64,000 nucleotides of DNA from Tricharina praecox (GCF_024521635.1 NW_026250414.1:620001-684000), one strand, 5' to 3'. Positions 21,450 to 47,748 are shown, counted from the stretch's first letter. A program made the numbers and translations. Notes: generated by a model not told the origin, from the letters alone.

Positions 21450-21760
21450 ATGGAGGTTCTTGCATTGATGGAGCAAAAGAATCTCAACCTTTTATTGCCG
21501 AAGGCTGAGTATGCACACAATCACGATCCAACGAGTAGGGAAGTGAGGAACTATCCTGGTGATCTTAGGGAAGAATATACGATGAGGCGAGGGGGGTCTT
21601 TAGGGCGCTGTTGCCTCCACAAAATGGGAGATCGACCAGGCTGAAATCATGGGAGATCACTCAGGATCGGCGCCGGCACGGGGTCCGGCACTACTTGCGC
21701 GGGTTCAACTGCCTGGCCGAATACAAACGAACATGGCTAAGCACAGCATACGAAGTAAAG
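21450..21760 (+). mobile_element. degenerate Ty3/gypsy retrotransposon fragment (integrase C-terminal and chromodomain-like remnants)
   Basis: EQKNLNLLLPKAEYAHN resembles the integrase W-x-x-LLP-x-AEFAYN motif. Downstream EITQDRRRHGVRHYL..TW resembles a chromodomain. Short and frameshifted. Confidence 0.4.
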
Positions 21761-22958: not shown

Positions 22959-25083
22959 ATGTGCCAAAGCACGAGGGAGGCACTGCGGCGCTGTATGACG
23001 CCTCTGAGTAGATGCGATACGCAGAGGCCGGACGAGTCGTTTCCGCGCCAAAGGGTGCAAGATCTCTTCGAAGCCGACGACGGCCAGCGGCTTCGAGAGT
23101 TGGCCGGCTGCAAGTGCGGTGTCTTCCGAGGATGCGCTTCGCGTCAGAGTCCGGCCTTTGACGAAAACATCATACGTGGTGTGCGCGGAATCGGATATGA
23201 GGAAGGGGAAACGTATCTTGTCGTTCTTGCGTTCCTTTGCTTCGTCGAGCGCATGGACCTCATCCACAGGTTCGTCGAGAAGAGCTACTCAGATCAGTGG
23301 CTTCACGAACATCCGCTCGAACGCCAGCAACTCGATGAACTGTTCTCGTCTCCGGAATCGGATGGTCAGACGTACTCAGCTCACATTGAGTTCGACTTCT
23401 TTCGGTTTTTCCTGCCGACCATCCACGGCCCGGAAAGGCAGCAGAAGTTTCTTTCCATGCAGACGTTGCCGCTCAAGATTATGGAAAGGAAAGGAGGAGG
23501 AGGGTATGGCGTCGTTTACCAGGCCAAGATGCTGGATGGCGGCTATTGCAAGTTCGTTGATGTGAAGGTTAGTCACCCATATTCCCTTCGACTGTCGAAT
23601 GCAAGCGACTAACAGTGGCAGGATGGACTTTTTGCGTTAAAGCGGTACACGAATCCGGTCGTGAGCGATGCCGAAGCCGATTGGGAGAAAGAATGGCGCA
23701 ATAACGTAGTGTACAACAAGCACCCGCACATCAACCCGATCCTTGCGTCGATTGCCCACGGAGACGTGTACATGAACTTCTACTCCCTCTGCGAAGGCGA
23801 TCTCCAGAGGTTGTTCGCAAAGGATCCCAGCCCGGAAGACCACGGAGCAAAGTCGATTTGGCGTCAATATATGGGGTTATTGTCGGCGCTCAACTACATC
23901 CACTGCAGCCAGCCCACCCAGTTTGGCTATCACTTCGATATCAAGACATTGAATATCTTGGTCCTGTTGGGGAGGTGGATGATCGCAGACTTGGGTCTGT
24001 TACACCGCAAGAATAACGAGAGCGGAATGCTATCTGCAACGCCGAGGAGGCCCGGATGCCAGGAATTCGGGGGCCCAGAGACGAAGGTGACGCGGAAGTT
24101 CGATGTCTGGGGGATCGGCTGCGTGGGTTGTATCGCGCTTGTATGGCTGAGAAAGGGGGCCCGCGGCGTCGAGAATTTCAGAGAAGACCGGAGGCAGGAG
24201 GTTGTGCAGATGGGGATGACCAGTATCCTCTACAACTTTTACTGCGAGACACCTAGCGGCCCCCAGCTCCACAAAGAGGTCGACAAGCTTCTGTTGGAAG
24301 CATCCGACGAGGATGATCTTTCAAAGGGCGTTGCTGGGATCTTGAGGGACATGCTGTCCATCGAGGTGGATGCTCGCCCTACCGCAAAGGAGGCCGAGGA
24401 GCGGCTCGCGAAGGTGCTGGGCGTTGAGCCGTTGGATGTTCCAAAACTGCCGCTAGGGTTCCAAAGTGTAAGTACAAGTCTCGCCGGAGCGGCTTTACCT
24501 CGGACCAACGTTTGGATACTGACATTATTTGAAACAGCAGCCGGCGTCGGCGCAGTTAGCCGTACCGGGCGGTGTTCTGGGACCCGTCAAGCCGCTTCAC
24601 TGTAAGTTCATAGCAACTTCTCCGCCGCGGCCACTACTGACGTTACCAGCACAAGCACAAAGCATCGGCGACGAAGTCATCGTCTCGGTTAAGCTTCCCA
24701 GCATGGAACATCCAGGAGCAAGTGTTGAGTTCACCTTTTCGCCAGGAACCGGCGACGAACCGTTATCCTCAGTCACCGTCAGCACCACGCCAACGTTTTC
24801 CATGGCCGAATCCGTACCCGTGCCTGGCTGCCTCACGCAGCGTTCCCAAGATCCACCCCACGAGCACGCCATGCGTATGCCCGGCGAGTGGCCCTACGAA
24901 GCCGATCACGACTACGATGCAGCTTCTGTGGAACCGTCAGGATGCTCACTTGGAACCCCGCAGTGGCCGTTTTCGAGCGTCACGATGGCTTGCAATCTCC
25001 TGTTGAGGAAGGTTCGGTTGAGACGTCAGTCGACACAACACAGCCCGAAATCTATCGCCGCGGCCAGCGGCGTGGACCCTTGA
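22959..25083 (+). CDS. Ser/Thr protein kinase K1 (non-RD) with ~180-aa Cys-containing N-terminal domain
   Basis: GGGGYGVVY, intron 23568-23621, FALK, YHFDIKTLN, IADLGL, FGGPE, KFDVWGIGC, RPTA. Intron 24468-24537 leads into a Pro/Ser-rich tail. Confidence 0.9.
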
Positions 25084-25434
25084 GGATGAGGGACAGTGAT
25101 TCCGAGGAGAGTTGAGCGTCCTGGACGTGGAGCCGACACGATGCGTGTGTTGATGGATTGGTTTTCAAACGATCGATTGATTGGTTGGTGTGTGTCTCGG
25201 TATACAAAGAAGGACCACAAGAGAGTCTGCTTCTCCGCTGCCCGTCTCCTCCCACTACGCCAAGAAAACTCTAAAAGTTCGACGCCCATCCAACCCTCCA
25301 CGACGTCTACATAAAATCCTAGGACAAAGGATTAATATTGGACGGGGCCCATTTTCAACCACCGGGTCCGATACAGCAACCCGAAAGTATCGAGAGAAAA
25401 AAAACTAAAGATCATGGAAAGACCTTCATAACTA

Positions 25435-25588
25435 CTGTATAGTGAAGGGGGAGGGGGGGGGGGGGGGTAAAAAATACGCTTTTTTCCGTATCGGTACGGT
25501 CAAAAGGCGTATTAGTACGGTCAAAGTACGTATTTAACCGTATCGATGCGGAAAAAGCGTATTTTTTACCCCCCCCTTCACTATATAG
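25435..25588. mobile_element. 154-bp MITE with TA target-site duplication (Tc1/mariner-type)
   Basis: Terminal inverted repeats CTRTATAGTGAAGGGG(G)nTAAAAAATACGCTTTTT..CCGYATCGRTACGGT at both ends, flanked by TA at 25433-34 and 25589-90. Confidence 0.85.
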
Positions 25589-26224
25589 TACCTACGCCGA
25601 TAGCGATACGAGAACGCCCGTTTCCTATCCCAACAAGTTGTGTAGATTTCATTTCGCCGCTTCAACATGCATGGGATGGGGCAGTGGGCGTTAGGCGCTC
25701 CTCGATGTCAGCGACGTCGACACAGCGCTTCGCCTCCCTCGAGAGGTGGAGGCGCCACGACGTCACTGCTCTAGGCATCCCACATAGGTGTGCGCTGTGC
25801 ATCATAGGCACGCATTGTGCTACATACTAGCGTGTGTATTGTAGAGTAACTACATCGCAGTGTGCCAATATCTTTGCAGGTGGCGTAGTGCAGGCAGTTG
25901 TTTGGCACTAGTTAGATAACTAGGGTCCATCCCTGCGCGTGCAGGAGCACTGCGCACTGCGCTCGGGATCAAAGCGACTGGGGTATCCGGAGTATCCGGG
26001 GGTCAGGGTGGGGGGGGGGGGCAAGGGATATGTATCTACGTGATATATTTCCACCTTCCGCCTTGAGCGCATCAACGACTATATCGTGGGCAAAAAATAT
26101 TTGTATAATACATACCGCTCGACGGTCTACCTTCGGGCTGTAGGCCCGCGGTAGTTAGAAGCCAGAAATACCCAGTGACTTCAAGTATTTTCCCATTATG
26201 TACTATGTATGTACTACTTCTACG

Positions 26225-28146
26225 TTAATCAGTGACGTTCATTTCCTCATCCCGTAGCGAAGAAAAGTTCCTTCGCGTGTACTCCCATAACGCCCAAACG
26301 GTAAACGTCAGGGCGAACAGTCCGGTTGTTGCCGCGGCAAACATCCCGATCACCGGACCGAGACTGGAACTGCGGGTATGGAAAATGTCCGTCATACCGA
26401 AGATTGCCTGGAACAGAGCACGCGTGAGAAAGAGGGGAGAGGATGGGAGGGGAGGGGGAGGGGAGTCGCTTACGGCTACGAGAGATGGCGGAAGGTATAG
26501 CATGCACATGATGGTGATCATATTCATGGACTTGGCGTACTCGGTTGCTTTCTCCGACAGCTTGAGCATCAGGCTGTTTTCCTTGCGAGCGAACACGTAC
26601 GGGATCTATGGGGCCAGCGGTTTCAACGGACGGATCCCACCATGCGCACGGCTGCCATGATGGAGTCACTTACGAGCGTGCAGACGAGCGAGAGAAGGCC
26701 TTGTGCGCATTCGATGAGATGCATGACCCGCACTTTGTGTTGCATGGTTTGGAAGAGGAGTTCCTGCAGCTCCCGATCGTACTTTTGGTGTTCGTCACGG
26801 CTGGTGTAGTTGCCTTGGCGCTGGAACTCCTCCATCCCTCGCCGGAGAGACTCGATGTTGGCGTAGTTGATGTCCAGCGCGTGCAGGAGCTGGTGGAGCT
26901 TCACCTTGTAGTGCTGTATCCTCTGGCTGTCGGGCATGACCAGTCCGGACTGGAGGTATTCGTCCACGAGGGCATTTGTCACGCCCGGCCGCCACATGAA
27001 TACCTTGGTGTCGAGCATTCGGAACTCTACGTCCAGGGCGTCGATATGCTCTGTCCAGTTCTGGCTCGCCGACTTCATCAGGAGCAGGTGTATTTCTTGA
27101 TCGTGGGCGTGCGCCTTTCCCGCCTTTCCCAGCCGCTTGGTCACCCGGTCCAGGTAGCTCTTGCGCCCGGGCTGGATCAGCACCCACGTGGTCCGGGATT
27201 CCTTTGGCTCGCGCTTCGCATACACGCCGATCTTGCGAGTGGTCCATATCGGGTGGTGGCCATCCGCGTGTGACGGCCGCTGCTCGACGTACTTGAAGTT
27301 GTAGCACAGTTCTGAAACCCCTCCGTCATCAGCTATCGTACGTACAGCACGAGCGAGCGACCGACCAGCCCGCAACATACCGAAAGTCTCCTCACGGGCT
27401 CCATCGGAACCACCATCGCTTGCTGGCGTAAAGTGCTGTCGATACACGGCATAATCCTCGTTCACCTCGTCCGTCTTTCCGCCAAAGAGGTGCAGCACAT
27501 CGAGGAACCCGGGGAAGATGGAGAGCCGAGAAACCAAGTGCCAGAGCATCTCCCAGCATATCGGAAGTTTTGCGAACGAGATGGTCGGCTGGATGGTCCT
27601 AATCACCGATCGATTCTTCTCAGATCACGACGTTCCCCTACCCCGGAAGAGCATAGATGCAGACTCCCGCGACGATGACTCACAGGAATATGTTCTGGTT
27701 GGTGGGCTTGTACGTACAATACATACTCGTCAGTACGGTACGGCGGCGAGCAGCATTTCACTCGCGGAGAACGAGTCGGAGACTACTGACTTTGACGGCG
27801 TCCAGGAGCTGTTTGACGGCCGTGGAAACGTCGCCGCTGCCCATTCCCGTCGATATGTTATTCGTGTAGTATCCCCCGCTAGCTGGGCCTTTTGTTCGGT
27901 AGATAGTATATAAGCGTCGGCTGGCCCGGAGTTTCGCGAGTACCGGGGGAGGGGGTGCCCCGATCCACTACCAAATAGAGTACTCGGGTACTAACCTCCT
28001 TCTATGCGACTACACGATGTTGCCGTCATTGACGTCACGTCGCCGAGCAGCCGCGCTGCTTTCTTCACCAGTCGCGCATGGTACCATTCGGCATCGACGT
28101 CGTAAGCGTGATTCTCGAAGTACGTGAGCCATCTGTCGGACGTCAT
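26225..28146 (-). CDS. CorA-like two-TM protein C1 (alternative start 28263)
   Basis: Spliced: IFPGFLDVLHLFG, ELCYNFKYVE, WTTRKIGVY, long helical region, MNMITIMCMLYLPPSLVA|AIFGMTDIF, second TM ending WALW. This is a CorA-type C-terminal architecture. Confidence 0.88.
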
Positions 28147-28683
28147 GGTCGTCGTCGGAGGTTTGGTGTGCGGGGGCTCGACGAAGACGGCGCACTCGCA
28201 CGCGACGATGTTGCTGTCGCTATCGCAGCAATCGCAGACAGATTCGGATGTAAAAGGGCACATGGGATGTGGGGAAGAATTATTGCAGTTGGTAGTGGGG
28301 CCCGAATGCAATGAATCGAGACCGGACGGAAGAGTCTCGGAAAGATTGGTTCGATCGGTGGGAGTAGGATGTAGGTATCTAGCAGGCAGGTAGGCAGTGG
28401 AATTATATTCCCGCTGTGCGCGCACACTCAGGACAGAGTTCTGGTGGGGGCTACAGTATAGTAGAGCCTACTAATTCGCGTGACGAGATGCACGAGGATC
28501 AGGCTGAGCAGCAACTGCCGTAGGCGTCCAACAAGAACTTACTTTTCTTTTCCAACCCAGTCATCAACTCCCTCCCCCACATATGAGCGAACACAACCAG
28601 CTTCGATCTGCCTCCCTATCCGCCCTCCCCCAGCGGTACTATTCTAGCCACCACCCAGCAGTTATTTCTCGCAGAGTCGCTAA

Positions 28684-29232
28684 TTACTCCGGGTTTGACT
28701 GGTCTTGAAGAGTGATAATCTCCTGCTGTAGACCCGATCGCGCCGTTAGCTACTCTGGGGTACATCGGCAGGCCGCAGGCAGGCAGGTATTCCGACCTCT
28801 GTAAGGCGACACGGCACCTTGATCCTCCAAAATATGCTAGTGCCGTACCCGGTAACCTCCTACATACCGTACGCCAGACCATCAGTATGATAACTATCCC
28901 GCCGTTCGTTCAGCCGGTTCGGTTTGGAAAAGCAGAGCACAGAGTGCGGACCTCGATGGACATCATTTCGCCTCCGAAAGACTGCCCCTTCCATTTCTCC
29001 TGTATGAAGTCTTGCAAAATGTTCTTCTTGATGTACCTGTAGCACACTACTTGTTAGTATAGGTAGTACATGGGGCGGAGTAGATATTGTGATAACTAAG
29101 TGCACGCTGGGACTCTGGGAGATGCTTTTGGCCGCTGACTCCTGCTCTCACGCGAGGGTGATGGGGGGATGAATGACCATACCTGCCAGAAAGGTCCTGA
29201 ACGATCATCACTTCGGCGGAGCTGCTACTCAT
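28684..29232 (-). CDS. small uncharacterised protein S3 (~79 aa)
   Basis: Exons 29232-29183, 29036-28952, 28859-28797, 28725-28684 give MSSSSAEVMIVQDLSGRYIKKNILQDFIQEKWKGQSFGGEMMSIE|EVTGYGTSIFWRIKVPCRLTE|QEIITLQDQSNPE*. Intron positions match S2. Confidence 0.85.
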
Positions 29233-31631
29233 TCGGTATTGCGTGTAAACTAGGTTTGGATCTGTTTCCTGGCGTCGATTTGCCGAAGTAGTGAAGTTGC
29301 TGCTCAAGGAAGGAAGGATTGCGATGATTGTTTCCGGCTTCTTGGATTCATTCGCAATCGGATTTGGCGATGATTCCTCCGTAGGCTCTATTTAAATGGG
29401 AAAAGAAACCTCAGCGGTCCGCGTTTGTAAATGGCAATGGCAATGGCGTTTAGTCGCCAGGCTGGCGAGGCGAGGCGGTGTGCCGTGTACGCAACCGACT
29501 ACACGGCAGGCTGAGTTTGAGTCGGCATGCTCGGTACATACTGTATGCAGGAGCGTACTAGAGTTGATTATTGGTTGGTTGGTGGGTTGGTGTCCCACCA
29601 TGTTATCTTCATACTTGGTGGGATGTTTCGACGGTTTGCGCAGTATTTCTGCGCATTCAAGTTGCGGTTACATACCCCTACCAGGGCTAATGTGCTTCGA
29701 GAGTAGATTAGTCGATAGTGCAAGACGATTGCATCGCGTTCCTCCGTTCAATGTTATCCCGGGGAGCCTACATTAATCACGAAAACGCCCACCCCGCAGC
29801 CCCCTATCAGTGCTCGGTGCTCACCATCGTCCGATATCTAGAGTACAGACTAGATACATGCATTATCTACCGAACTCTGCGAAGCCCACCTGGAGCCTCA
29901 TGCACATGTGCTCTACATGCGTTCACATACAGCCACGATTTGTTTCACCTCTTGGTTAGCTGGGTATGAGGTATGTGTGTAAGTTCTTGGATAACAAGTA
30001 GGCCTTCGGAAATTCCTGCGAATTTACACGGGATTGTGCGCTCTTCGCACGCGGTGGTGATGACAGCATTGCATGGAGTATGTAGAGGCCTCACCATGAT
30101 CTCCAGGATGTGACTAGTCAACTCGCTCATCACCGATGCCAACTTGCTCCATCTAGAGTAGTTATCCAATCAGAAACGAACAACACTGTGCGCAATGATT
30201 CTGATGGAGAGACTCAACGCCCATCGTGTCACAAGACTGGGGCTCCACGTCCAACGACTGGTGATCGCCTTTGTTACCTAGAGTAGTTAGCGGTGATCGG
30301 ACCCGGTCGGCGGTGAATTCGAGTCACTAGTAGTTGACTACCCCGCGACCAATTGCCAGCCCCAGCAACCCGCGACGATCATGTCAGCTATGTCAGCTAG
30401 CATACATGGGCACAGCTGCACATTTTGCACACAAACACAGCCGTGCTGCAAACCCGAGATGCGGATAAAACTAAAGGCTTTTAAAAGCGGTTGGCTGCAA
30501 GCCTGCAACGCGAACACAGCAACGGAGACAGCAAGCTGAGGGAGAGAAGCGCCCTATGGGATTAGCTACTTGTGTGGTTCTATGGGACAGGATGGTGATG
30601 ACGATAGCTGGGCTGGATGGCGAATTTGTTCGCGCTCGAGCGGAAGGACAGACACGATCATCGAGTTGCGGCACCGGCTCCGAAGGCTCAGCCCATCTAC
30701 ACCGAACCTAGATCAACCAGCAGACATCTCTCTATCTCGAGAGAGAGGAACACGGCACACACGGCACACACACGCACAACTGCTGAGCCCGACGACCCAT
30801 AACTCCCCCATCCATAAAGCCCGCTCAGGTGTTGCAACTCAGAGCCGAATGACCACCACGTCGAGAAGTAGCCTGCTCGCCCGAACTACGAACCGCGAAC
30901 ATTGCCTCCGTGCATGCTGCCGGCTTGGAGCCAGCGGGAAATCGAAGGACATCAATATCCGACGCTGCTCTTTCGATGCGGAGAAGCGGCGGGTCGCGAC
31001 AGGTTACCTACTTGCAGTACATACAGTCGGCCGACCCCTTGCTCAGCCTGCCTACCTAGTACATGCCACATGGGGGCAATCACTGGCCGGTGAAACATTG
31101 TTCAGCAAGCACACAACGGGCTCCGTTAGGGGCGCAGTTTTCGAGCCCACGCCCTTCAGCTCAGTTCGCGACGATGTCACTCTTTTAAGGTTCAAACGGA
31201 ACGATCGAGACTTGGCCACCCTGCCTGCCACGCTAAAGGTTGATTTGTGTTGTGGCCAATGATTCACAACGTTGGGACTTCGCCTGTTTTCCACTTCCAC
31301 TACAGCTCACCCAGCTCACAAATCATACTTCGGAAAGTGGCCTACTTACTCATACCGCGGGGAAAAAACCAAAAAGACTGCCAGCGCCCGATGCACTTGA
31401 TTCCTCTGGAGATGCACTCCATTGCTAGAGCTGCTAGCGGCTTCCTACTGGGTCCCGTTCCCCACACCGCCAGGCCGACACCACGGCAGTCAAACGGCAA
31501 GAGTCGGCTTTAGCCATGTAGGAGAAGGAAACCTGCAGGCGGTGTGATTATTATTGTGCATACCTAGCAGCAGACACACTTCGCAGCTTAAATACTCGCT
31601 GCCTACATTCACCGATCGCAAAAATGCGAAA
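29233..31631. promoter_or_regulatory. divergent intergenic/promoter region between S3 and S2
   Basis: Head-to-head starts. TATA-like TTAAATA lies upstream of S3 (~29390, minus strand) and of S2 (~31588). Confidence 0.45.
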
Positions 31632-32146
31632 ATGGGCAAACAACCCCCGGCACCCAAGCCCAAGCCTTCGACGATGTACCAGCAAGACCTCCCCACCAGG
31701 TTCGTTCCGTTGCGATGCGTTGCGATGCGTTTCCCACTAACTTCGCATCCCATCACATCACGGCCGCTCGCTGATGATGACGATGAGTGCGACTCGGATA
31801 GATACATCAGTCGCCACGCACTGCTCAAGTTCCTACGACAGCGATTCCCCAACGCCGCGCCGCAGGAGATGAGTATAGAGGTACGTTCGTTCGTTGGCCG
31901 CAACAGACACAGCCACAGCCTTGTGCCGCGCTGAGCTGAATGCTAAGCACGCGGCGGTTTGAAGGAGGTCGATGCGGCGTACTGGCGTATCGTCATTCCT
32001 GAGAGGCTCTCGCAGGTATGTAGCCTCCCCTTCAGCCGGCTGGCAGGTGTGCTTGGATGCTTGGTTTTCGGTCAGGACGTGCACTGAACATCGATGCCCC
32101 CGCTCCCCCGTCACAGGACGAAATAGATGAGATACAAAATATGTAA
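31632..32146 (+). CDS. small uncharacterised protein S2 (~75 aa)
   Basis: Exons 31632-31699, 31802-31880, 31965-32015, 32117-32146 give MGKQPPAPKPKPSTMYQQDLPTRYISRHALLKFLRQRFPNAAPQEMSIE|EVDAAYWRIVIPERLSQ|DEIDEIQNM*. Confidence 0.87.
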
Positions 32147-32565
32147 TGTGCTGGTGTACTTGAATGGAGGACCGTGGGCCTGGGTGGAGGTGTTATTCGA
32201 TCTGTGCTGGGTGTTTCAGAAGTTTATATTAGGTGTATCATGGGAGGGGTGAATTTAACGGTCTCAACCGCTGGCCTATAACAGCGGAGTCGCTATCGCT
32301 CCAGTGAAAAGTCGCTTTGAGCCTCGTGTAGACGGGCATAATTGCCAGTCGAACCAATCTCTCAGGATGTGTAGTGTAACTAACAGTGCTCCACCTGTGA
32401 TCCTCCGGCTGAGGTAGTGCAGATACGGGGGGCGGTTGTATATAAAGTCGAAAGATGTGCCGCACAACGCGCATCGCACATCGCGCATCGGACATTATCA
32501 GAGCCAGTTCTTCCTCAAGTCCCAAGTCCCAAAAGATTCACTATCCATCTTGCAGCGAAGCAGGG

Positions 32566-34823
32566 ATGGAGATCTACAGGCCCAGAAGCAAATCATCCGC
32601 GCCGGTGCCGTATTTCCTCGCAGGCGCCGAAAAGTATCCGCAACAGCACACACATACAAATACACGCCACGATCCAGCGCGCATCGACATCCGGCGGTTC
32701 GACGACCGCTGGAAAAGCGATTGCGACCGCGTCCTAGGCGAGAAAACTAGCATCGACGTTGTTTCGGTGGTTTATTCACACCCGCGTGGTGGTGCGGGGA
32801 TGAAGGGTATGTAACGTTCGTTCTGGGTTGGTTGCAGGCTGGCAGGCGGCTAATCAAATCTGCGCGTGCATGCATGACGGCATGCTGGATGTTTCAGGGC
32901 TGATAGTTGATGTTGGGGTAGAAACACTCACATTGAAAAGGCGGCTGGTGACCGACGAGGCGAGCCTGGCGGAAGTTCATTCGTCGTCGCAGAGTGGCAC
33001 GAGGGGACTGGCCTTGGCCGCTGCGAGATGTGGCTCCACAGGCTCCACCGGCTCCACGGAATATGCATCGTCGTCCGGAGACGAAGACTCTGAAATTGCC
33101 CTCTGTGCACACGCAGAATCTCCGCCGGCTGGCGCGCATACCTTCTTGTATTTATCCCCCCCCCCCCCCCCCCCCCCGGTCCGATCCGTGCGGATCGAGG
33201 GACTAAAAGAAAGCGCAGTTTTGTCAAACCGAGGATTTCGTACGGCCTGCTGCTGATGTCGAAGGACATACAGCAGAAGCTGCTGACGACGCTGGACGTG
33301 TTTCCCGCGTTCCTGGATATCCTCCATCTGTTTGGCAGGAAGCACGAGGAGATTAACGAGGATTATGCGGTCTACCGACAAGAGATAGTCTGGAGAGAGG
33401 AGGAGCAGGAGGCCTGGATCGCACCCAGTGTTCCTGAAGCATTCGGTATATTACCCTCGATCGTTTTGTGTTGTGTGTGCTTGTGAACCCGCGTTGACGG
33501 TGCTGTGAAATCGCAGAGATATGCTACAACTTCCGCTATGTAGTCCAGCGGAAGGGGAATGTTGAAGGCGAAGAGCTCATCTGGACGACGCGGAAGATGG
33601 GTGTCTATTCCAAGTTTGTGCCCGCGACCAACACGACCACGTGGATACCCGTGTATCCGCCCGATGAGGCAATTCCGCGCTTGGAGGAAGTGTTTACGAG
33701 CGATTCGAAGCGGAGGCGAGGAATGCGACATCATATCGATATTCACCTACTGTTAATGAAGACTGCAAGCCAGGACTGGCTGCCGTTCATCAACCATCTA
33801 GATAAGAAGCTGATAGAGTTGGTACGATGTCCTGTTCTCCGCCGTAGTTGACCCGAGACTTGTAGCTGACTGGCCCCAAGGACAAAAAGACGTACATGTG
33901 GCGGCCCAAACCGGGGAGCACTATCACCAATGAGCACAGAGACTCGGACTCCGAGTTGGAGCTGGAGGACACGCAGCGGGTGCAGAGATTCAAGATCGAG
34001 CTGCTGACGATAATCCACGCGCTCGACGTCAACCTAGCCAACATCGCCTCTCTCCGACGGGGAATAGAATCCTTCCGCAGAAAGACCAAAGTCTACATCA
34101 CTGACGACCTTTACAAGCAGTACGACGAAGATCTCGAGGACCTGCACATCCTGATGAGCCAGCACCGGGTGCGAGTCAAGAACCTCCTGCAGCGCGCCGA
34201 GAGCCTCTTCTCGCTCATCATCACCATCATACCATATATCTTTGCGCGCCGTGAAAACACCCTGATGTTCCGCCTCTCCGAAAAGGCCACCCAGTACGCG
34301 AAATCAATGAAGGTCATCACCATCGTGTGCATGCTATATCTGCCGCCATCCGTCATTGCCGTATGTTATTACTATTCTCCTTCCTGCCACCTGTCCACTC
34401 AGCATGCTCATATATATATACCAGGGCGTTTTCGGAATGGACTTCTTCCATCCGAGCTGGGACATCGCAATCATGTGGGCGATCTTCATATGCGCCACGG
34501 TGATTCTGGCGGCGTCGACCATCGGCCTCTGGCTGTGGTGGGAGCACAGATGTTTACGAGATGAGGAAGGAGGAGGTGGCAAAGTAGATAGCGAAAACAC
34601 AGGAGGAGGACGAGGAGGAGACGAAAATACGGGGGTGACGGTGGCGGAGACTCCGGTAGGCGCGGGGTTGAACTGGTGGCGAAGAACCTCGCGGCTCAAG
34701 TGGTGGCCAAGAACCCCGCCGCATATCTGGTGCAGGACAAACTCTGGGCTGGTGGACGTCGAGCGGGGCTCACCCTATCGAGAGAAGTATGTGGAGTCTT
34801 CGAGGAATCCGACGATGGGTTGA
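32566..34823 (+). CDS. CorA-like two-TM protein C2 (alternative start 32455)
   Basis: TATATAAA at ~32439. Spliced motifs AEKYPQQ, FVKPRISYG, VFPAFLDILHLFG, EICYNFRYV, WTTRKMGVY, MKVITIVCMLYLPPSVIA|GVFGMDFF, second TM ending WLWW. Confidence 0.88.
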
Positions 34824-35680
34824 GCGGAAGAGTAGGTAATACCGATATAATCAAAGCCTTATAGATAGGGCAGGCTGAAAGAGGAAGGTACATCGCTGGT
34901 GGGGACTTTATGGCGCCGAGGGGCTTGTATTTCGCTGAAGGGCAGGTCAGCGGAGGAACTGTTGTTTGGGCGGTGCGGAAGTTTGGATCATATCGACAGA
35001 ATGTGCGGTAGAGAGAGACGGAGAACAAGGGATTGAATTGACTTTCTTGCGTGGTAGAGATATGAAAAGAGCGGGCAACATTGGCGGTTTAAATACAACA
35101 CATCTGTCTTCCATCCTCGAGCTTTCTCTTTCCACATTGCGTATGCACACTGCGTATGCCCATTGCGTGTCATATCTTATCCCACATTACGCGTCCTGCC
35201 TTTCGGGCTTGCCAGGCTGTGGTGACGCACTTTTCTTCAGGAATGAATTTGGCTAGAGAGGATGTACGTAGCTTGTATTTGCAATACATGCTTTTGTTTG
35301 GTTCGGTTGAGGGATTCGCGTTCACCTTATTTCGTGCAAGCCGTATTTGGTAGTCACATCATAGTCAGATGCCCAGCACGAGATCCAAAATCGCCAATCC
35401 AATGAAGCGCGCCGGGAAGACTGATGGCTAATGCGCTAATCACGCGGCCTACCCACTATATCCGCCGGGTTCGTTCCTGCACGTGGCGGTGGAGGCACCC
35501 GTTACGCCCCGCGGCAAGGATACCTACCCACCACGGGCACCGAGCATCCGATTCTGGAGGCACCTTCGAGCATCACGGGAGGAACTCACCTGCCTAGAAT
35601 ATCGATCTGCTTCGCATAAGGGGCGATTTCACGCAATCAGTGGTTAGGACTGCGAGTGACCGGCCCATGTTTCCGAGTGA

Positions 35681-36001
35681 TGTGCCTATGATGACAAGAA
35701 CGATCACTACAGAGGACCCGAGCAACCCCCGGAGGATACCCTAAAGCAACTGGAGGTATTCGAATCAAGTCTGCGAGCGCAGCATAAGATACCTAGTGAT
35801 GTTGCACTGTTTGTGAAGAAAGGCAATCGCTACGAGTATAATGGGAAAGGCTTCTCTGGCAGGGGTACGGGCACGCAAATTCTCGGAAAACGCTCTAGGA
35901 ATCAAGCAGAAAAGGACATTGTCTGCTACGGCTGTGTAAAGAAGAGACACAAGAAGAACGAATGCCGCGGGCACTACACATGGGATCAACAACTATTCTA
36001 A
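35681..36001 (+). mobile_element. retrotransposon gag relic with CCHC zinc knuckle (copia-like)
   Basis: LKQLEVFESSL..ALFVKK..CYGCVKKRHKKNEC = CX2CX4HX4C at 35924-35965. No ATG start and no protease/pol follows. Confidence 0.55.
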
Positions 36002-38918
36002 TATAGGTAGACGGTTGATTCGCGGGGAGGGTTGAGCAGGGAGGGTCGGCCGGGCGGAGAGAGAACCGATATCGAGCTTGTGGCGAGCTGTCGGTGCCAA
36101 CATTAGGGTGGAAATAGATACGTTGTAATCTGCCATGATGCACTAATTTCAAATGCAATGTTGATTTTTTTTTAAAAAAAACAAAGGCCAGCAGCGCGAG
36201 GCGTGTCAGGTGATACCGCCGCGTGAGATCTAGTGCTCCAACGGTGATGCCAAAAACAAAAACCGTCACCACCTCCGGTGGGTGACTTGGAAACCGCAAG
36301 AGCTGGTGTCATTCACACGGCTGCGATTAAATGGGGTGAAGGCACGGACATCGAGTAAATGTAGCGGGGGGGATGGGGGGGCGTGGGAAGGATTGGAGGA
36401 TTGGGAAGGATTGGAGGATTGGGATGAACCTACCTACTCGAAACGCTTCAGAGTATACCGGCTCATTCAGACGTCTTAGCGCGTATGTCTCATGAACGAG
36501 TAGACACGGTACATAGGGCTCGCGTGGAAAGGGAAGGACTCCAGTGGGGGTGGGGAAGATGGCAAAAATCAGTATTCGACCGTGATATGGCCGCTGGACG
36601 GGCACCAGCCGCATCACCAGCCACCACAACCAACAGCCCGCTCGGCCAGAATTGCTCCGTCTCGACTTGTGTTTTTACGTTACATTGTGCTTTTCCGTCA
36701 CATTTTACGACAATACTACGTGGCTGTCATGTTACTTCTGTGGAGTGTGGCTTAGTGGAGTGATGATTCTTCACATTCACGTTCATAGATAAGTACTGTC
36801 CATCATGGCGCCCTCTATCCACGAAAATGCTTGTCACCACTTTGTCCATACCGTCGCCACTCATCACTATACTATTACCATCACCATTATACCGGTACAT
36901 GTTCACTTTCGATCTGGTAACAAAAAAACCCGCGCTATCTGGATATTTTACGCCTGTGTGGCGCCGTGGCTTTGGCACGTAACCAGGCTGGTTGTGCGGT
37001 TTGGTGATATGCACGATGGCTGGCGATATGGCACCATGGCATTGGCCTGTGCTTAGATAAACTTTAAAGAGACACATCGTCGCGTGCAGTGTCCCCTGCA
37101 AAATGTACTCTACTGCTGGTGTCTCACCGCTCCTACACTGCTGACGCATCAGCACGGATCGGTTGACCAAAATGACGCATTATCATGCAAGTCCTTGGTT
37201 GCTTCTCCAAAGGTATTCGCTGCACCCGAATTCTAAGTCACGATTTCTACATTTACCCCGCTCTTGAGTGAAGTCTATATACTACATTTACCTTACTCCA
37301 CCAAAAACCTATAAATCCGGGAACTCTCAAGTCCCGAAGTAACTTCCATTGAAGTGTCGTTCCAACCGCTGCCGTCCTCCTTAACCCACCCCATTCCGCT
37401 CCACAATTCTCCCGCCTCCGAATGTTCATCGCAAGACGAAACGGAAAGACGAAGAAGAGGAAGTCTACTATCAATGGCAATGGCAGATCTAGCGTCGCTT
37501 TGTGCGGTACTGGATACCCAAGTTGGCTGATCACCCAGTGCGGCGGGGCGGTGGATAGGGTGTCATACGGTCCGTTTTTGCGGCCGCTCCAGACGAGATG
37601 ACGGGTTAGTCAGGCTGGAGATAGAGATGACTATAGGCAGATGTCTCGGGTTACCGATATGAGCACGGATATCCTACATACAGGGCCCGGAATGAAAAAA
37701 GGCCACCGACTGAGGACTATTCTACACATCAACACCCGAGTCCCCCCCCTTACACTTCGCGGCTGTATTTCCGCCTTTCTAAATGTGCGCCCGCCGCGAC
37801 TCCTCCTGAAAACCTGCCCGTGACGGCCCGTCCACGACCTCCGATCGCCCTGCCCCGGTGGCGCGACCTTGCGCGTACGTATGGCTCTCGATTATCTCAC
37901 GATCCGTGCCACGAGTGCAGAGCTGGTTGAAGCCTTGGAGTTCCTCAAGAGCTGGCCGCAGAGAGATGAATTGATTGATCGCGGGAACGCGGGAAGAAAT
38001 TAATGCGTTGAGGAAATGTTGCATGCTCTTTGCGAGGGGATCTACACCAGCAGTGGCTAGATCTGTAGTACATAAGAGCCACGTACACTCCAAACTATAT
38101 TGCCGATGCCGGCCGATTTTTCTTGCGGGTTTGCTCCAGTCCTGGGACCTTGTAATCGTATATGTACTGGTTTTATGTCGCCTTTTAATAATCGACTTCA
38201 CACAGAAAAGATGTGCGAAACGGATTTACGACATCTTCGAATCCGTTTCTTATTGAAGTTGTTGTTGGAGAGAATCCGGGCCGGCACAGTGCCTATGGCA
38301 GAGGCTCTGCGTATTTAGTCCAATAATCGCCACCGTGTTCGAACCTACGTAGACAATCCGTATGTTGAAGAGGCTTATACTTAATCGGGCGGTGCAAGCC
38401 AGCAAGGTCAATGGCCACCTAGAGACCCTGAGTGAAACTTTGCAGCACCAGAATCGTTAAAAAAAAATGTTATCTCGACAACGCCCCGCAGGATGAACCC
38501 GCAGCAGCATGCCGTAGTTTCTCCAGGCACTGCCGCAAAATTGGAGCACATATGTATTTCCACTACCTTCCGACGACGACATCAATACTCTAATTCAAAT
38601 CCCACCCGGGCTATGGCGGAATACACTTTTTTTTTCTTCACCTTTCTTTTAGGTCCCGCATTTTGATGATCCGGTCACCCACGCTATCGTATGAATTGTA
38701 TGACCAGACTAGGCGCAGTGTGTTGTCGACGTGCGCTGCTGCAATGGGTTATGGTGTCGGTGCTCCTAAGGCGGGCCTGATAATACACTCCCGGTGTGAA
38801 AGTCCTAATACGGTAGCCTGCAGGACTATAAGGTGTGCCCCTCTCACTAGGAAAATCACCAATTCTTGCAATCTTAACATCGAGCGTGATATATACCAGT
38901 GCAGTGCCCGCACACGAC

Positions 38919-40878: not shown

Positions 40879-43800
40879 GCGGGGAAGGAGGGAAAACGAC
40901 GGGCGACAGATAAGGGGCTTCGATACGACTGGTGGCTCCGTGGATCACCGGATGGAAAATGATGCGGGGGACGACGAGAAGGGTTGTTTACGGGGGCGGC
41001 CGGTTGCCAGGCATATGGAAAACGGTTGTGTGGGATGGCAGTTCCAACTGCCGGGCGCGAATCCTCAGGTCATCCAAGTTGCGACTTGGGTGATTATCTG
41101 AATGTTAACTACAGTTAAGGGTAGTTTTGTGGTATGGATTTGCAGGGCATATCACCGGCGTGTGGTATCCGGCGCCGGGCTAGGCGAGAGAAGATGGTTG
41201 GGGGGGGGAGGGGGGGGTACAGAAGATGGAGGAGACTCTGGGACTGCGGGAATGGGACATGACGCTGTGGCGATTGTCGGGGGAGGAGGAGAGAGCGCTA
41301 TTTTCTTGACAGACATACTTGTCAAGCAGGTGGGTAATTGATGTTTTACCCCGGCCCATGGGTGCCTATCCTGCAGTCGATTCTGGCGAGCGGAATCTGG
41401 GGTTCTTTTCGGTTTCGTGAATAGGTGATCGTCGAAAATCAATCCGTCCGCCGCACTTCCAGGAATTCACGATTGAGCGGCCCGTCGACCATGACAACGA
41501 GAAGCTAACCTTACGAAGCCACGACACTGCGAGGAGCAGCACATTGCCACCGTGCACCTGCAGCTACCCACGGTCGGTAGGGATTCGCGAAACATCCAGG
41601 TGGCTGTGGGGGGTGTCGGAGGCAAACTCTCTCCACGGACGTCTTGAGGAATGACATCTTGTCGGAGAAAGATTATGTCAACGAGAATCAGATTCGGGAG
41701 AGGGCGATTCGAGAAGCGAACGTGTTTGGCTGGAGGGTATCGAAACTCCCTTACTTCTGACGGTCGCATCCGATTCCTTGGAACGCACTATGTCGGGTTC
41801 CGCAGTCTCACAGCCTCACTCAGTCATTCGTCGACCAGAACGCGAATCGAATTGGCGGCGAACAGCGAGCTTCAATCGTGCATAGTATGGAGGCGGATTC
41901 CTACGCGCTGAGCCCACTTTTTGTTGGCGGGTTCCCTCGTGTGCGTCCTCAGGTCCAGAGCCGAGAGTGGCGTTGCATCTGACGATGGCTGGGCCGTGGC
42001 CGGCCGCAGACGGCAGGCCAGGTGTTTCATGGCCAGCTCACAGAGGGACTCATGGTTGGTATGCGATCACTCCATTACTACGGTATTGGTGGGAATGCAG
42101 CTTTGCCAGAAGCCGAGCCTCCGGGTAATTGCGGGTGGGCTGAGGTTTCGACGAGCCGATGCAAAGAATGCCTAGATCGAGCAAGTTTAGGAGGCCTGTG
42201 CGCTGGACGATGCTCTCATGCAGTCATGGCACGTCAATCCCGCGGTGGGCGCGAGTTTTCACGTCACCGACGTGAGAAATGCGCCGACCACAGAGCTGAA
42301 CGAACATCGTCGGAGATCCACGTGCTCCCTATTGGTAGTCTGGGCGAGGTATTCTTTTCGGCCGCCCGAGTACCCTCCTCCTGCTTCTCCAAACAGATCT
42401 ATGGGCTCAGCGACTCAGCCGCTGTCTCGAGTCTCGACTATAAAATGCCAGTTATCTCAACTTTCAATGACAGATCTAATCTCGGATTACGGTACAGGGG
42501 GAAAGTCATCGTATAGTAGACCATTCGGCCGTCCCGAGTACCCACTCTAAATACCTACCAGATGGGATGGCGACATGGACCAATTATACCTCCAGTACCG
42601 TTTGTAGCGGTGGCCACAGTCTGAGAAGCGAGAATAACTAATGGCCGAGTTAACTATCGCCAAATCCACGGCGAACATGTAGAAAAGCCTCCCGCAACAC
42701 GCTGCATACTAGTCCGTGAACCCCGCCGTAATCTACGAGCCGCATACCATACAATAGAATACTGACAATTAGGCAGAAACGTTGGCAATCCGACCATACC
42801 AGTCCGCAGCCAAATAAGCACGCATAGATAGTTACCCGACGACGGAACAAACGCTGCATTCACGCTCACCGGTCACTGGCAGACCGACTGTTGCGCATGT
42901 TTCAACATCTGCCCAATCATCGCCAGAATAGGTAGGTAGGGTGGGGTGAGAAGCTCGAGGAATTCCTTCGGCCAGTCTGTTGTTTGTGGTGACTTGATGA
43001 GTGTAGGCAACTTAAGGGATCGACGAAGGACTCGGCAACAAGTGGCTGGCTGGCTGCCACGGAGTAGCACCCGGCTTGACGGATTGGCTGGAGGGACGAG
43101 ATGAAGCGGCGGGATCGACGCGCGGCATTGGGGGGAACAGGATTCGTAACTGCGGATTCATTGGTGTGGAATCTGGATTATTCGCCAATGAGGCGGCACG
43201 AAGCTTGATGGTCAGAATAGTAAGCCTTGTCGTTTAGATGCCGGGTATATTATTGTACCAGTGTAGCGTGTGGCGGGCATTGGATCGACCGCACAACCAA
43301 CTTGATATACCACCACCGCCGTCCACGACCTCACTTCTCACTTCTCACAATTCCTAGCTCCTCAAGTGGCGACCCATGCAATGCTACATAAGTAGGTATA
43401 GATAGTAGGAATTGTCCGCCCTATCAATCTCTACCTAGGTACTGCAGTACTTCATAACTCTCACAGAGTTGCTGGCACAAGCCTCAATCGCGAATTGTGA
43501 ATCTGTGAAGCCTCGCAAATTCAAATCTACCCAGCACCTTCGGACATCAGTTCTTGCTCGATTCTTCAGCTTTGATCCTATCAAGTCCTATGGAGACTGC
43601 GGCGACCCAACTTGCACCTGCCGCCAGCGGATTAGTCCATACTCCGATTTTGAAAGTATAATACTACTGTGCTGTGGGTCTGAATACCTACTGTAGCAAA
43701 AAAGAAGGGGGGGTTATCGGTATGGCGGCAGTTATTAAATACAGATACTCAAAAAACGGTGAAATATTTACAGCAGGAAAAGGAGTAGAATATCCAAAGC

Positions 43801-44757
43801 AATGCCCGATGACATTTCGGTGCGTAATCATGTGATTAATCCTGTTGTTTGATATTGGTCGCACTATCGCCACGAGTCGGCATTCAAATGAATGCGACTT
43901 CGCGCAACTCTCATAACCTTACTAGTTCGATTTTAGTAACGGAATGGAATTTTATAAACGTCGCACACATATAAAATTTTCCTCCGCCTTGCCCTCCTCA
44001 CCACCTCCCATGCAGTTCTTGTGTTCCTCGATGTCGGTCCCCATCTCCATACCCATCTCAATGACCATCTCAATGTCAATGTCCATCTGCTCGTCGGAGG
44101 CGGGGGCGATAGTCTTCATTGTGGGGTTGATAGTAGTGCTCATTGAGTCAGTCGCTGACTGTATTGTAGAGGTTGTGGGTTCGAACGGTTTGTAGTAGAG
44201 AATTGTTGATCGGTGGGGGTTTTTGATTATCGATCGTCCGATGGATGGTGTGGGAGGAAGAAGAGAGAGAGATAGAGAGAGAGGAAGGTAGTTGGGGAGG
44301 AGATATCCAGTGGCGGCAAAGTGAAAACCCACCTGGTGCTGGAGGTGAATCGCCGCTGCGAGGCGTTATTGAGGCTTGTCGCTGCCACCGTCGAGGCATA
44401 TACAACCACTCGCGAACAGAGTGATGCATCGTGAAGCGCTGCCGGAGAAGCGCGGAGCAGCGTGTACAGCTGCGATCACTCGTGGACAGCTATCAATCCA
44501 GGCACCGTGTCTACATATCTAGTCAGAGTTTTACGCCGTGTGCAGCACCTGGAGAGCTGCAGTCAGACATGGACAGCTATAGTCACATGGCATCGTGCCT
44601 ATTCAATGAGTATGTCGCACCATGTGCAGTTCAGGCCCGCCGGATTTTTTTTTCCTGATGTACCAAAGTATGCTGCACATCACATTTGATGTCTTTCCAA
44701 CTCTCGTCACATTCCCAGCAGATCCTGATTCGTCCGTGGAAGCGACCGGCCGCCGTA

Positions 44758-44796
44758 GGGAGTCGGGAGTCGGGAGTCGGGAGTCGGGAGTCGGGA
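44758..44796. repeat. (GGGAGTC)5 tandem repeat
   Basis: Read directly. Confidence 0.95.
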
Positions 44797-45660
44797 CTGC
44801 TTTTCGATAATATCGTTCGCTCGAACTCATACGAGTGACTTGAATTATTCATTGTTCATATGACAGCTTGGAGTCCTGGTTAAGTCTATAGCCGGTATAG
44901 AAAGGAAAAACAACAACCAAATTTCAAAAGCAAAAACAGAAACAGGTGCGTAAACTAGAAAGTAAAACCTGACAAAGGAGATCCTCCCAGGATCCTCCAC
45001 CGGGCCGCCGGCCATCGCGCCCTCCTTCCCCATATCCGTGCTCAGTTGTGTTAGAAAACTCGTTCGTCAGGAGACAACTGTCTCGGGTTGTCGTCGTTGT
45101 TGTTTTTTCTGTTGGTTCATGGTCGTCGTGATCCTGGCGGTGTGCCTGGCCTGGGCTCTCCCCCCTGGAGTTCACCTGTCTCCGAGCAACTTTAAAGTTG
45201 GGGCAGATACACCAAAACGTCGCCAATGATAGTAGACCTCGAACTTGAAGACTTATCATTCAATCCGAAAAACATATTCAAAATAGTACGAGTACATTCA
45301 ATCCCACAAGCTACCTCCGATCTCATGAAATCCCGCAAAAATGAAACAGACTGCAAATCACGCTCTCTGGCAGTAACGATGCCACCCGATAACCCGACCT
45401 CCGAATAGACAAAATACCACCAATAAAAGGCCCCTACAGGCGACATAAAGAAATCCTTACATAAGAACTCAAAGAACCCATAGACCCAAAACCCGCAAAA
45501 CATTAGTACACCCTTCTAGTCCTCCCATTCGGCGCGGAGACAAAAAAAAAGACCACACATCACACCCGCCCCGAAACACCCCCCACCCCCGCATCATCCC
45601 GAGGCCCCGAACCATAAACGCGGTCTTTCTTCAAAGCGCGTCTATGCTGGACCGGCAGGC

Positions 45661-47748
45661 CTATCGCCCCCAGCCTCGCTCGAAGTCTCGTAAGCCTCGT
45701 CCCTTTGACGGAGGTCGGGCTCTGCCGATGGTGACCGAACCTGGATCACTATTGGAACCGCTGCTTCGGCACCGCCAATCTGTGCTGGTGTCGGGATAAC
45801 GATATCCTCCATTTGGTATGGGGACCGCCCCTGTGATATCGCTGGTAACTGTTAGCATCCGACACTCTCTTTCCCTCATCGAACGGCATGACCTACAATA
45901 TCGCGCACGTTTCTCTGCACGGCCAGCCTCGCCGGGCACTTCCAAGCTGTTCTTGACGCCACCGGCCCGTTGGAGAGGAGTCACAGAGTACTATGTTCTA
46001 TGTCAGAGATAGTCGGTACGGGTGGGACAGTTCTGTAGCTGCTTACCGTGGGAGTGAGTGTAGCAAATTTCGGCGGGATTGGTGGAACAACCGGTGTCGT
46101 GGCTTCCAACGCTTCCTGCAAGCCCACTCGAGCATCGTTCGCCGTCACACGGCCGTCGGCTTCGTAGTTGAGCATTTTTCGCAATATCGCGGCCGCCATC
46201 CCTGTAAGACCTCCGACCGCCTCGGATTCCGACAGTAGTGTCTCGACCGCCGGGATGAGGACCTTATTCCCGTAGAAGCTGGACCCGATGACACTCACCC
46301 CGTGGTGGGTTGTATCGTAATTTTTCCGGTCTTTGGCAAACTGCTCGACACCCGCCGCGCCTTTGGCAAGCCAGACGAGAATCACACATCCAATGCAACC
46401 CAAAGCCCACCTGCAAATCAATATTAGCAACCCGGCCAGTCTAGAGAGGCGGTCGACATGACTCCACTCACACATCATATCCCCGCCCCACTTTCTCCCA
46501 CTGTGGTGGGCCCCACTCGTCGCTTCCTGCTCTTCTTCCGGTCTTGGATAGATCGGCGTTCATCTCCTTCTTTTCCTTGTAGTGAGCCAATCCCAAGTCG
46601 ATGATAGTCCAGAAAGAGTCCCCGAAAATCATGATGTTGTGTGGTTTCTATCAGGACAATATTAGTAAGCTTTCATAGAAGGGCTTCAAGAATACTCACC
46701 AGATCAAAGTGATACCCCAGCCGATCGGCTCTGCCGGTATGAATATGGTTGAGACCTTCGAGAAGCCCCATGAACTGGCTCCAAGTGAAATGATGGTCAA
46801 GGTAAGGCCCCGATGGGTTTCTGCGAAACAGTTCCTGCAGACTGCCACCTTCGGCGAACGGATAGATGTGGATGAAGATGCCCTTATGGTCGAGGGATGC
46901 TAGAAGAGATATCACTCGAGGATGGAGAAATTTCGAATTATTGAGCATTTCCTTAGCACAGTCCTGGCCAGCCACCACGAGACTAGGGTCGCTGTAAGTC
47001 TTGACGGCCACAAAACCTTCTCCCTGTATCTAGTCAGCACTTAGCTCGGCTAATATGCACATGATGGTCATACCTGGACTTTTTCAAAATCGTGGAAGCC
47101 CTTTAGCAATCGCGCTTTGTACACCACAGAGTAGCCTCCCTTCCCGACCTCCTTGATGATGTTGAGGGGGAGAATCTGATTCTCGTTGATATGCCGGTGG
47201 TTATAACGATCTTCGTACCAAAGGTTGACGATGAAGTAGTTGAAGAAGTTGGAGTATTCGGTCGTGTCTGCGGTCGTCTCCTCAGTGTCATCGGGTTCCC
47301 CAGAGACCAGAATGTTGAATGTCCACTGGGAGATTGGGGGTTTATCACCGGATTCCGAAGGAGGGTTAAAATCCAGCTCCCTGGATCCAGCCAGCTTTTG
47401 ATCCGAGTACCCTTTTTCCATGAATTTGAAGACGGGCCGTATATCCATCATCTGTATGAGCAGGAAAGCCAATACTCCAACGTAGGTGGCGGTGGTCCTT
47501 GGTCCGCCGTTCCTGCTACTGCTAGGGTCGCCTCGGATCTCCTGAACTGTCTCATCGGTTGGGATCCCGGGTGGACAATGGGCACAATCACAACTTAACA
47601 ACTCCTTGATTCGAGCTGCAGTGAAGAACTCCATCAGCTTGTTGTGGCAGTGTACCTGGACACTGCCTTGCTTGCGTGGCCGCTCCAACTTCTCGCCGAG
47701 TTTTGCCCCCTTGATCGACCTCCGTATCCCGTCGCAAGAAGATGGCAT
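45661..47748 (-). CDS. Ser/Thr protein kinase K2 (non-RD), paralog of K1
   Basis: Exons 47748-47074, 47023-46700, 46647-46472, 46410 onward give GKGGYSVVY, FVAVK, YHFDL|KPHN, IIDLGL, WGPPQ, GYDV|WALGC, RVTA. The 3' exon boundaries are less certain. Confidence 0.9.

Follow-up and report, generated by a model that had tools for sequence, protein, structure and literature searches.

A 64,000-nucleotide stretch of the Tricharina praecox genome (GCF_024521635.1 NW_026250414.1:620001-684000) carries three kinds of gene set out as two units in mirror arrangement: a microprotein gene (S), a gene for a CorA-like membrane protein (C), and a gene for a non-RD protein kinase (K). We refer to the whole of this 64-kb stretch, numbered from its first letter, as the window. 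Here, we describe the three families, how their genes are expressed and spliced, where the arrangement recurs in related sequences, and how the subfamilies match. These observations are best explained if S, C, and K make up a module that is conserved and inherited as a unit in cup fungi of the Pyronemataceae type.

Layout of the locus

The gene order in the window is K1> <C1 <S3 on one side of a divergent spacer and S2> C2> C3> <K2 on the other, with an orphan microprotein gene, S1, at 17586 on the plus strand. A preliminary description of the locus had proposed this order and orientation, which were confirmed by blastp paralogy and by a scan for S motifs. The features are as follows.

17586 to 18103, plus strand: S1, orphan microprotein gene of about 104 amino acids (aa), with no C gene downstream.
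22959 to 25006, plus strand: K1, non-RD protein kinase of 603 aa, with spliced contigs in both RNA runs and a Pkinase match.
26225 to 28263, minus strand: C1, CorA-like (PF26616) membrane protein, convergent with K1.
28684 to 29232, minus strand: S3, microprotein gene of 79 aa (71 aa from a conserved second Met), directly 5' of C1 and co-oriented with it.
29233 to 31631, no strand assigned: spacer between the divergent genes S3 and S2, on which the mirror arrangement is centered; it includes the transcribed stretch 30541-31699.
31632 to 32146, plus strand: S2, microprotein gene of 75 aa, or of 61 aa if counted from Met 2 (at 31674), which is conserved; directly 5' of C2.
32455 to 34823, plus strand: C2, CorA-like protein (PF26616-type), with four introns supported by contig joints.
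38919 to 40878, plus strand: C3, extra CorA-like copy with no S upstream, located by tblastn with the homolog P0004, its N-terminal exon read from the sequence.
45981 to 47748, minus strand: K2, second non-RD kinase with at least three introns, located by blastp to K1, its junctions and motifs read from the sequence.

Paralogy was established by an all-against-all blastp comparison of the window's open reading frames (ORFs) of at least 50 aa. K1 and K2 align at 27% identity over 242 aa (expect value [E] 9e-12), 37% over 111 aa (E 1e-20), and 40% over 105 aa (E 3e-17), and C1 matches both C2 and C3 at 41% over 115-117 aa (E 1e-26 to 1e-28). The extra CorA-like copy that had been claimed is C3, whose closest paralog is C2 (78% over 172 aa, E 4e-98, or 65% on shared alignment columns) and which faces the convergent K2 across a gap of about 5.1 kb. 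The paralogs also differ in their introns, with two in K1 versus at least three in K2, and with S1 lacking the first intron of S2 and S3; the strong divergence and unlike introns of the preliminary description are therefore real (27-40% identity for K1/K2 and about 41% for C1).

RNA evidence and gene models

RNA evidence was taken from contigs of two public runs, X1 and X2, aligned to positions 17400-37399; C3 and K2 lie outside this aligned stretch. The runs contain about 65% of the sampled words from 26000-34800. They are labelled 'RNA?', and we treated them as cDNA on the grounds that predicted introns with GT..AG ends are missing from their contigs. Short GT..AG (or CT..AC) segments are skipped exactly at sequence-predicted introns, three each in S2 and S3, five in C1, four in C2, and two in K1, so all five of these genes are transcribed and spliced. 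Contigs of both runs also cover the S1 region (17400-18733), and three stretches are uncovered in both (18734-20067, 21402-22068, and 35409-36742).

The K1 contig runs from 22300 to 25978, with the spliced pieces 22300-23565, 23620-24467, and 24650-25978 present in both runs. Joints support the C1 introns 26606-26673, 27312-27380, 27599-27683, 27707-27790, and 27889-27995; the annotated protein P0001 points to one more, near 26400-26470, and the start of C1 is either the ATG at 28263 or position 28146, the point from which homology is seen. The S3 introns (28726-28796, 28860-28951, and 29037-29182) are joined in both runs on the same contig as the C1 exons, and the S2 introns (31700-31801, 31881-31964, and 32016-32116) have GT..AG joints in both runs.

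The C2 introns with joints are 32807-32921, 33446-33516, 33822-33880, and 34361-34424. Contigs end at a run of 23 C residues (33155-33177) within C2, which coincides with a change of frame. A predicted GT..AG intron at 33149-33218 restores the frame and agrees with the homolog alignment, and the run probably lies in this intron, which would keep the frame open. Alternatively, a homopolymer of variable length may switch C2 on and off.

Contig pieces at 30583-31699 (X1) and 30541-31699 (X2) extend for about 1.1 kb 5' of S2 and end at the first S2 splice donor, which suggests either a long S2 5' leader or a noncoding transcript of the divergent spacer. A 240-aa ORF in this spacer (30540-31259) gave zero Pfam matches. 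On the other side of the spacer, contigs of both runs break at 29429, where they match onward and have 255 unmatched letters on the other side; this suggests a junction to sequence outside the aligned stretch, near the S3 promoter.

CorA-like proteins

The C1 exons match the T. praecox protein P0001, annotated as 'hypothetical protein BZA05DRAFT_47845'. The family PF26616 is assigned in the precomputed Pfam column to all five database homologs of C, C1 (P0001) included. For P0004, a 511-aa C homolog from Wilcoxina mikolae, the nearest ESM Atlas clusters come from Ascomycota and bear the name 'CorA-like transporter domain-containing protein'; PF26616 is present on 60-84% of their members, the feature similarity is 0.97, and the structural template modelling (TM) score is 0.63-0.79. 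The neighbors of its Atlas model (predicted TM score 0.71) include an archaeal CorA cluster at TM 0.47-0.49. The Pfam CorA model PF01544 matches P0004 at 27.8 bits (cut-off 27) over the membrane hairpin only, and scores 14.9 bits for P0001 and 15.8 for P0005; the corA equivalog TIGR00383 gave 27.5 bits versus a cut-off of 200.75.

An AlphaFold model of C, built from a shallow alignment (predicted local distance difference test [pLDDT] 50), shows a beta-sheet domain, long stalk helices, and terminal helices. When this model was searched against the PDB with Foldseek, all matches listed (48 ranks) were CorA, the best at E 5e-6 over about 320 columns, with TM scores of only 0.21-0.39; 55 matches fell at E <= 0.001. 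We conclude that C is, by sequence and predicted fold, probably a CorA-superfamily protein of an uncharacterized fungal PF26616 branch. The GMN site is replaced by F-G-M-G in P0004, C3, and the metagenome homolog L001, by F-G-M-T in C1, and by F-G-M-D in C2. Given that this site reads G-M-[G/T/D], C is unlikely to be a classical Mg2+ channel.

The S microprotein family

Three signatures define S: R-Y-I..L..F, then [YF]-W.[IV].[IV]-P..L, and then E-I..[IL]-Q. The ordered trio occurs at exactly three sites in the 64 kb, 17685-17982 (plus strand), 31800-32137 (plus strand), and 29038-28705 (minus strand). The first of these bears out the third small gene placed at 17586 by the preliminary description, given that S1 carries all three motifs in order. 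Its exons are predicted at 17586-17762, 17829-17879, 17962-18010, and 18066-18103, with the introns deduced from homology and GT..AG ends. S proteins have 61-104 aa, are hydrophilic (grand average of hydropathy -0.3 to -0.8), contain no more than one Cys, and lack any hydrophobic segment. The window and the metagenome loci described below share the positions and phases of the three introns; the Arg codon of R-Y-I is interrupted by intron 1, and the other two introns are in phase 0.

Database searches returned almost no relatives. No Pfam model scored below E 0.05 with P0017, P0018, or any of four single S exons, and a word-based search of 5.8 billion proteins found no annotated S relative at 32-104 aa. 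An exhaustive phmmer search of 1.84 billion representatives returned nothing beyond the window's own ORF, P0018, and a low-complexity match, with a sensitivity limited by the query, which was S1 read through an in-frame intron. P0018 is an unspliced read-through ORF of an S1-like gene in a relative; it is 40% identical to S1 and has no C downstream. S is a family of soluble microproteins encoded by multi-exon genes that had previously been unannotated, and both the family and its association with C and K appear to be undescribed.

The idea that S could be a decoy, through similarity to C or K, was considered and rejected; the best match (E 0.046, from a tiny database) falls short of significance.

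The kinases

The Pkinase model PF00069 scores 49.7-69.1 bits across the K proteins (cut-off 31.7), with K1 at 49.7. K1 has the motifs H-F-D, D-L-G, and A-L-K, and K2 has H-F-D-L/K-P-H-N and I-D-L-G as read from the sequence. The beta-3 Lys, the H-x-D Asp, the Asn, and the D-L-G Asp are present in both kinases and invariant or nearly so in 11 homologs, and K looks catalytically active by these residues. In the K of L002, the anchored row has E in place of the catalytic-loop Lys, which may be an intron artifact. The non-RD assignment made earlier for these kinases holds, in that H-F-D occurs in 13 of 14 aligned K rows and H-L-D in the remaining one, so that the RD Arg is missing from all of them.

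The nearest solved kinases are AMPK and Nek7 (27.6-29.1 bits). The N-terminal domain of K, about 200 aa long, matches no Pfam family, and its only similarity is to unnamed Ascomycota clusters; in the AlphaFold model of K (pLDDT 48) it scores about 30. The N-terminal domains of K1-type and K2-type kinases (K1 at about residues 40-60, K2, and P0008) have in common a C-x-C-x(4-6)-C cluster and the stretch Y-x-V-V-L-A-F-L. The region may be a small metal-binding domain.

Homologous loci in metagenome contigs

Scanning metagenome contigs with the C alignment yielded seven loci, L001 to L007. L002, which comes from another organism, has the complete arrangement S> C> <K, with S at 9463-9821, C at 9992-11821, and K at 14981-13402. 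L001 has S> C>, with 233 bp from the S stop to the C start. The linkage of S, C, and K that had been expected in other genomes was thus found, in full in L002 and as the S-C pair in L001. L005 is nearly identical to L002 and ends inside C, L003 and L004 are a near-identical pair, and L006 and L007 are fragments of about 1.1 kb. Among six distinct C loci with upstream sequence, S lies directly upstream and co-oriented at four (C1, C2, L001, and L002), and a convergent K lies downstream of C1, C3, and the C of L002. In addition, the K homolog P0010 and P0005, the C of L003, are probably on one contig and more than 10 kb apart, given that both list 28,566 bp as their longest contig. The S genes of L002 and L005 differ at 2 of 195 exon positions and 8 of 415 nonexon positions, which are too few differences to show selection.

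Retroelement sequences adjoin two of these loci. Downstream of C in L001, positions 5826-10882 hold a long interspersed nuclear element (LINE)-like element with endonuclease (Exo_endo_phos_2), RVT_1, zf-RVT, and RNase_H domains, and downstream of C in L003 there is an RNase H relic at 5926-6492.

Spacing of S and C

The distance from the S stop to the C start codon is 170-540 bp. At the S3-C1 pair, one contig in each of the two runs spans spliced S3, a spacer of about 420-540 nucleotides, and spliced C1. The spacers of Tricharina contain 2-4 ATGs, versus 6-7 in shuffled sequence; those of L001 and L002 contain 8 and 6, respectively, and both have a TATA-like element 61-68 nucleotides before the C start codon.

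This organization raises the possibility that S acts in cis, as a conserved leader gene that would set the output of C by transcriptional interference or by reinitiation on a shared mRNA and would not be a protein partner. Such a role is consistent with the position of S on the same strand 170-540 bp upstream of C, with the single RNA contig over S3 and C1 in two runs, and with Tricharina spacers poorer in ATGs than shuffled sequence. It also has a precedent in the natural bicistronic genes reported from filamentous fungi (PMC10352335). However, S is conserved at the protein level over three exons with its intron phases kept, S1 and its relative P0018 occur without a downstream C, and the spacers of L001 and L002 are ATG-rich and carry the TATA-like element. 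We therefore consider an exclusively cis-acting S improbable.

Matching subfamilies

Trees were built from query-anchored tblastn rows (12 for C and 14 for K, none dropped) by a quick search in IQ-TREE under LG+G4. The C proteins fall into two clades, each with a Shimodaira-Hasegawa-like approximate likelihood ratio test (SH-aLRT) value of 100: clade A, with C2, C3, P0004, L001, and L002/L005, and clade B, with C1, L006/P0002, and L003/L007/P0003. In the K tree, K1 groups with the metagenome kinases P0006-P0015 (SH-aLRT 98), and K2 and the K of L002, which are the partners of clade-A C genes, fall outside this clade. S2 is 53-57% identical to the S of L001 and L002 and only 39% identical to S3. 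The C and K trees and the S identities therefore agree on matching subfamilies. These matches suggest that the whole S-C-K unit was duplicated and that both copies retained all three genes. The simplest history suggested by these sequences would be an ancient duplication of the complete unit that preceded the divergence of these taxa and left the gene order intact in both copies.

A conserved module or linkage by descent

The genetic linkage of S, C, and K within one fungal family is supported by these data. Several points weigh against the stronger claim that the three genes form a co-inherited module. Some units are incomplete: no S was found upstream of C3 by tblastn and motif scans, S1 has no C downstream, and in L003 and L004 the same scans found C without an S in the 2.4 kb upstream and without a K in the 10 kb downstream. 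L001 is uninformative with regard to K, given that the LINE-like element fills the 5.3 kb from C to the contig end. P0007 and P0008, from metagenome contigs of about 2.6 kb, are ORFs in which a K1-type C-terminus is fused by read-through with a K2-type N-terminus, and so in another organism the two kinase types stand in tandem on one strand with no C between them. All instances come from Tricharina, from Wilcoxina-like sequences, and from contigs of one metagenome series, and with so narrow a breadth of taxa, part of the recurrence is explicable by shared ancestry. The tree rows are query-anchored rather than curated gene models, and the pairing of K2 with the K of L002 is weak (SH-aLRT 73, long branches). 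The AlphaFold models of C and K are poor (pLDDT 50 and 48). Finally, the continuous RNA cover from S3 to C1 does not by itself prove one mRNA, and C probably has its own mRNA and promoter, to judge from the TATA-like elements and the 2-8 ATGs in the S-C spacers.

The linkage could have arisen by descent alone, with C, K, and S as lineage-expanded families that spread through local and partly inverted segmental duplications; the repeated order would then be left over from these duplications and from slow rearrangement, with no functional coupling. In keeping with this, all loci are from close relatives, duplication has been local (C2 and C3 are adjacent and 65% identical), units are incomplete at C3, S1, and L003, other arrangements exist, such as the K1-type/K2-type tandem of P0007 and P0008, and PF26616 is large across Ascomycota. 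On the other hand, the split between clades A and B predates the sampled species, yet order and orientation are the same in both clades. The S-C spacing has stayed at 540 bp or less in four loci despite proteins that have diverged to 39-57% identity, and S and C are still together in L001 even though retroelements lie beside the units of L001 and L003. Linkage by descent without coupling is in our view unlikely, if still a serious contender, and we retain the conserved, co-inherited module as the best explanation.

Gaps and flanks of the locus

When the five known C and K genes were masked, tblastn of the whole window with five C and three K proteins gave a best E of 0.056. The CorA-like relic that had been proposed beside S1 is therefore not there, and neither a C relic nor a K relic was found elsewhere in the window. 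Eleven ORFs in the gaps and flanks between 18 and 45.5 kb had zero Pfam matches, which upholds in part the view that no unrelated intact gene lies within the 25 kb of the locus; unannotated genes could exist at 37.4-48 kb, which is outside the RNA alignment. Transposon-rich clusters had also been named as frequent among fungal nonself and cell death genes. No transposon domains were seen in the window gaps, but retroelement domains do lie beside the homologous units of L001 and L003.

Farther out, the window contains ordinary flanking genes: a fungal rhodopsin-domain ORF at 6909-7748 (minus strand), a FAD-binding monooxygenase-like ORF at 10590-11099 (plus strand), and a 14-3-3 fragment at 52542-53510 (minus strand).

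Proposed function

We propose that the S-C-K unit is a functional module in which C acts as a CorA-fold channel or pore of altered selectivity, with S as a co-expressed soluble partner and K as a regulatory kinase. We place about half of our confidence in this proposal. From the arrangement and the families, we infer the physical interactions, the phosphorylation, the direction of control, and the transported species as follows. C would most likely be an oligomeric channel or pore for something besides classical Mg2+ uptake, given that the CorA pore hairpin is kept and the Mg2+-selective Asn is lost. S would be a cytosolic protein dedicated to C, acting as a regulatory subunit or as an inhibitor, and would be expressed from the same tightly packed transcription unit. 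K, a convergently encoded kinase of Ser/Thr type, would switch the S-C complex by phosphorylation. Control of the channel by the kinase and microprotein was part of the preliminary description, as was a role in cell death; both are suggested only by analogy with known systems.

In the cell death version, the locus would be a non-self recognition or cell death module with C as a membrane-permeabilizing executioner, K as its trigger, and S as an antidote or adaptor, much as in RIPK3-MLKL or in toxin-antidote pairs. Non-RD kinases are linked with innate immunity, and K is of this type. C lacks the Mg2+-selective Asn and would be free to be a different pore, the genes have duplicated and are diverging, retroelements lie near the units of L001 and L003, and a tightly linked small partner gene would be typical of antidotes. 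However, HeLo, HET, NLR, gasdermin, and patatin domains were not seen with Pfam in the ORFs scanned, nothing ties K to RIPK-type kinases, and the match to a CRISPR-type CorA model is negligible (13.9 bits, for one of two proteins). A cell death module is, on this evidence, highly doubtful.

A broader and bolder possibility is that the functional module proposed above represents an undescribed fungal effector system, in which a CorA-fold pore would be restrained by a microprotein and freed by a non-RD kinase, with an outcome in regulated cell death, antagonism, or toxin-antidote-like drive. Such a system may be widespread among Ascomycota PF26616 genes, with S missed by annotation. We consider this a long shot. 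The component families of C and K are already known. In the literature searched, we found no link of CorA-like proteins with kinases, microproteins, or fungal cell death, nothing that combined non-RD kinases with fungal genomes, and no mention of PF26616 by name.

The proposed S-C-K partnership is of interest as a first testable handle on the PF26616 proteins, which are numerous in ascomycetes and of which none has a known function. It also illustrates how short multi-exon genes, although conserved and expressed, escape annotation beside well-populated families. Should a non-Mg2+ pore indeed be gated by the module, the CorA-fold proteins recently found to serve as regulated membrane effectors would gain a eukaryotic example.

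Comparison with known systems

C1 to C3 and their homologs are members of the PF26616 'CorA-like' family, which is numerous in Ascomycota and has no described function; an upstream microprotein gene and a convergent kinase are undescribed for this family in the literature searched. Compared with the Mg2+ channels CorA, Mrs2, and Alr1, C shares a C-terminal two-helix hairpin, an M-K-x-x-T...L-P-P...G-M stretch, a basic stretch after the second membrane helix, and, in the low-confidence AlphaFold model, a predicted long stalk helix and alpha/beta N-domain. Unlike those channels, C reads G-M-[G/T/D] for GMN, is without the M-P-E-L loop, and carries an extra N-terminal region of about 120 aa that has no counterpart.

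Two parallels drawn in the preliminary description were weakened by our analysis. CorA effectors of type III CRISPR systems resemble C as CorA-fold membrane proteins that have dedicated accessory genes and are not devoted to housekeeping Mg2+ uptake, which is an analogy only. The PADLOC model for CRISPR-associated CorA (PDLC01174) matched P0001 at 13.9 bits, over the membrane helices, and did not match P0004. The locus is eukaryotic and has no CRISPR or cyclic-nucleotide genes, and the partners here are a kinase and a microprotein. The likeness to RIPK3-MLKL is similarly limited to the pairing of a kinase with a membrane-acting protein, again by analogy. C would have a CorA fold and not that of a four-helix-bundle executioner, K is nearest, among solved kinases, to AMPK and Nek7 (at best 29 bits), and Pfam found no RIP-type kinase, four-helix-bundle, HeLo, or MLKL-like domain in K or C, so that nothing ties C to MLKL or HeLo proteins.

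A guide may come from MgtS and MgtR, bacterial membrane peptides of about 30 aa that regulate Mg2+ transporters. S differs from these peptides in being soluble, eukaryotic, 61-104 aa long, and encoded by multi-exon genes, and the two would not be expected to be related in sequence. The principle of a microprotein that tunes a cation transporter would nonetheless be common to both, and it provides our working model for the action of S on C.

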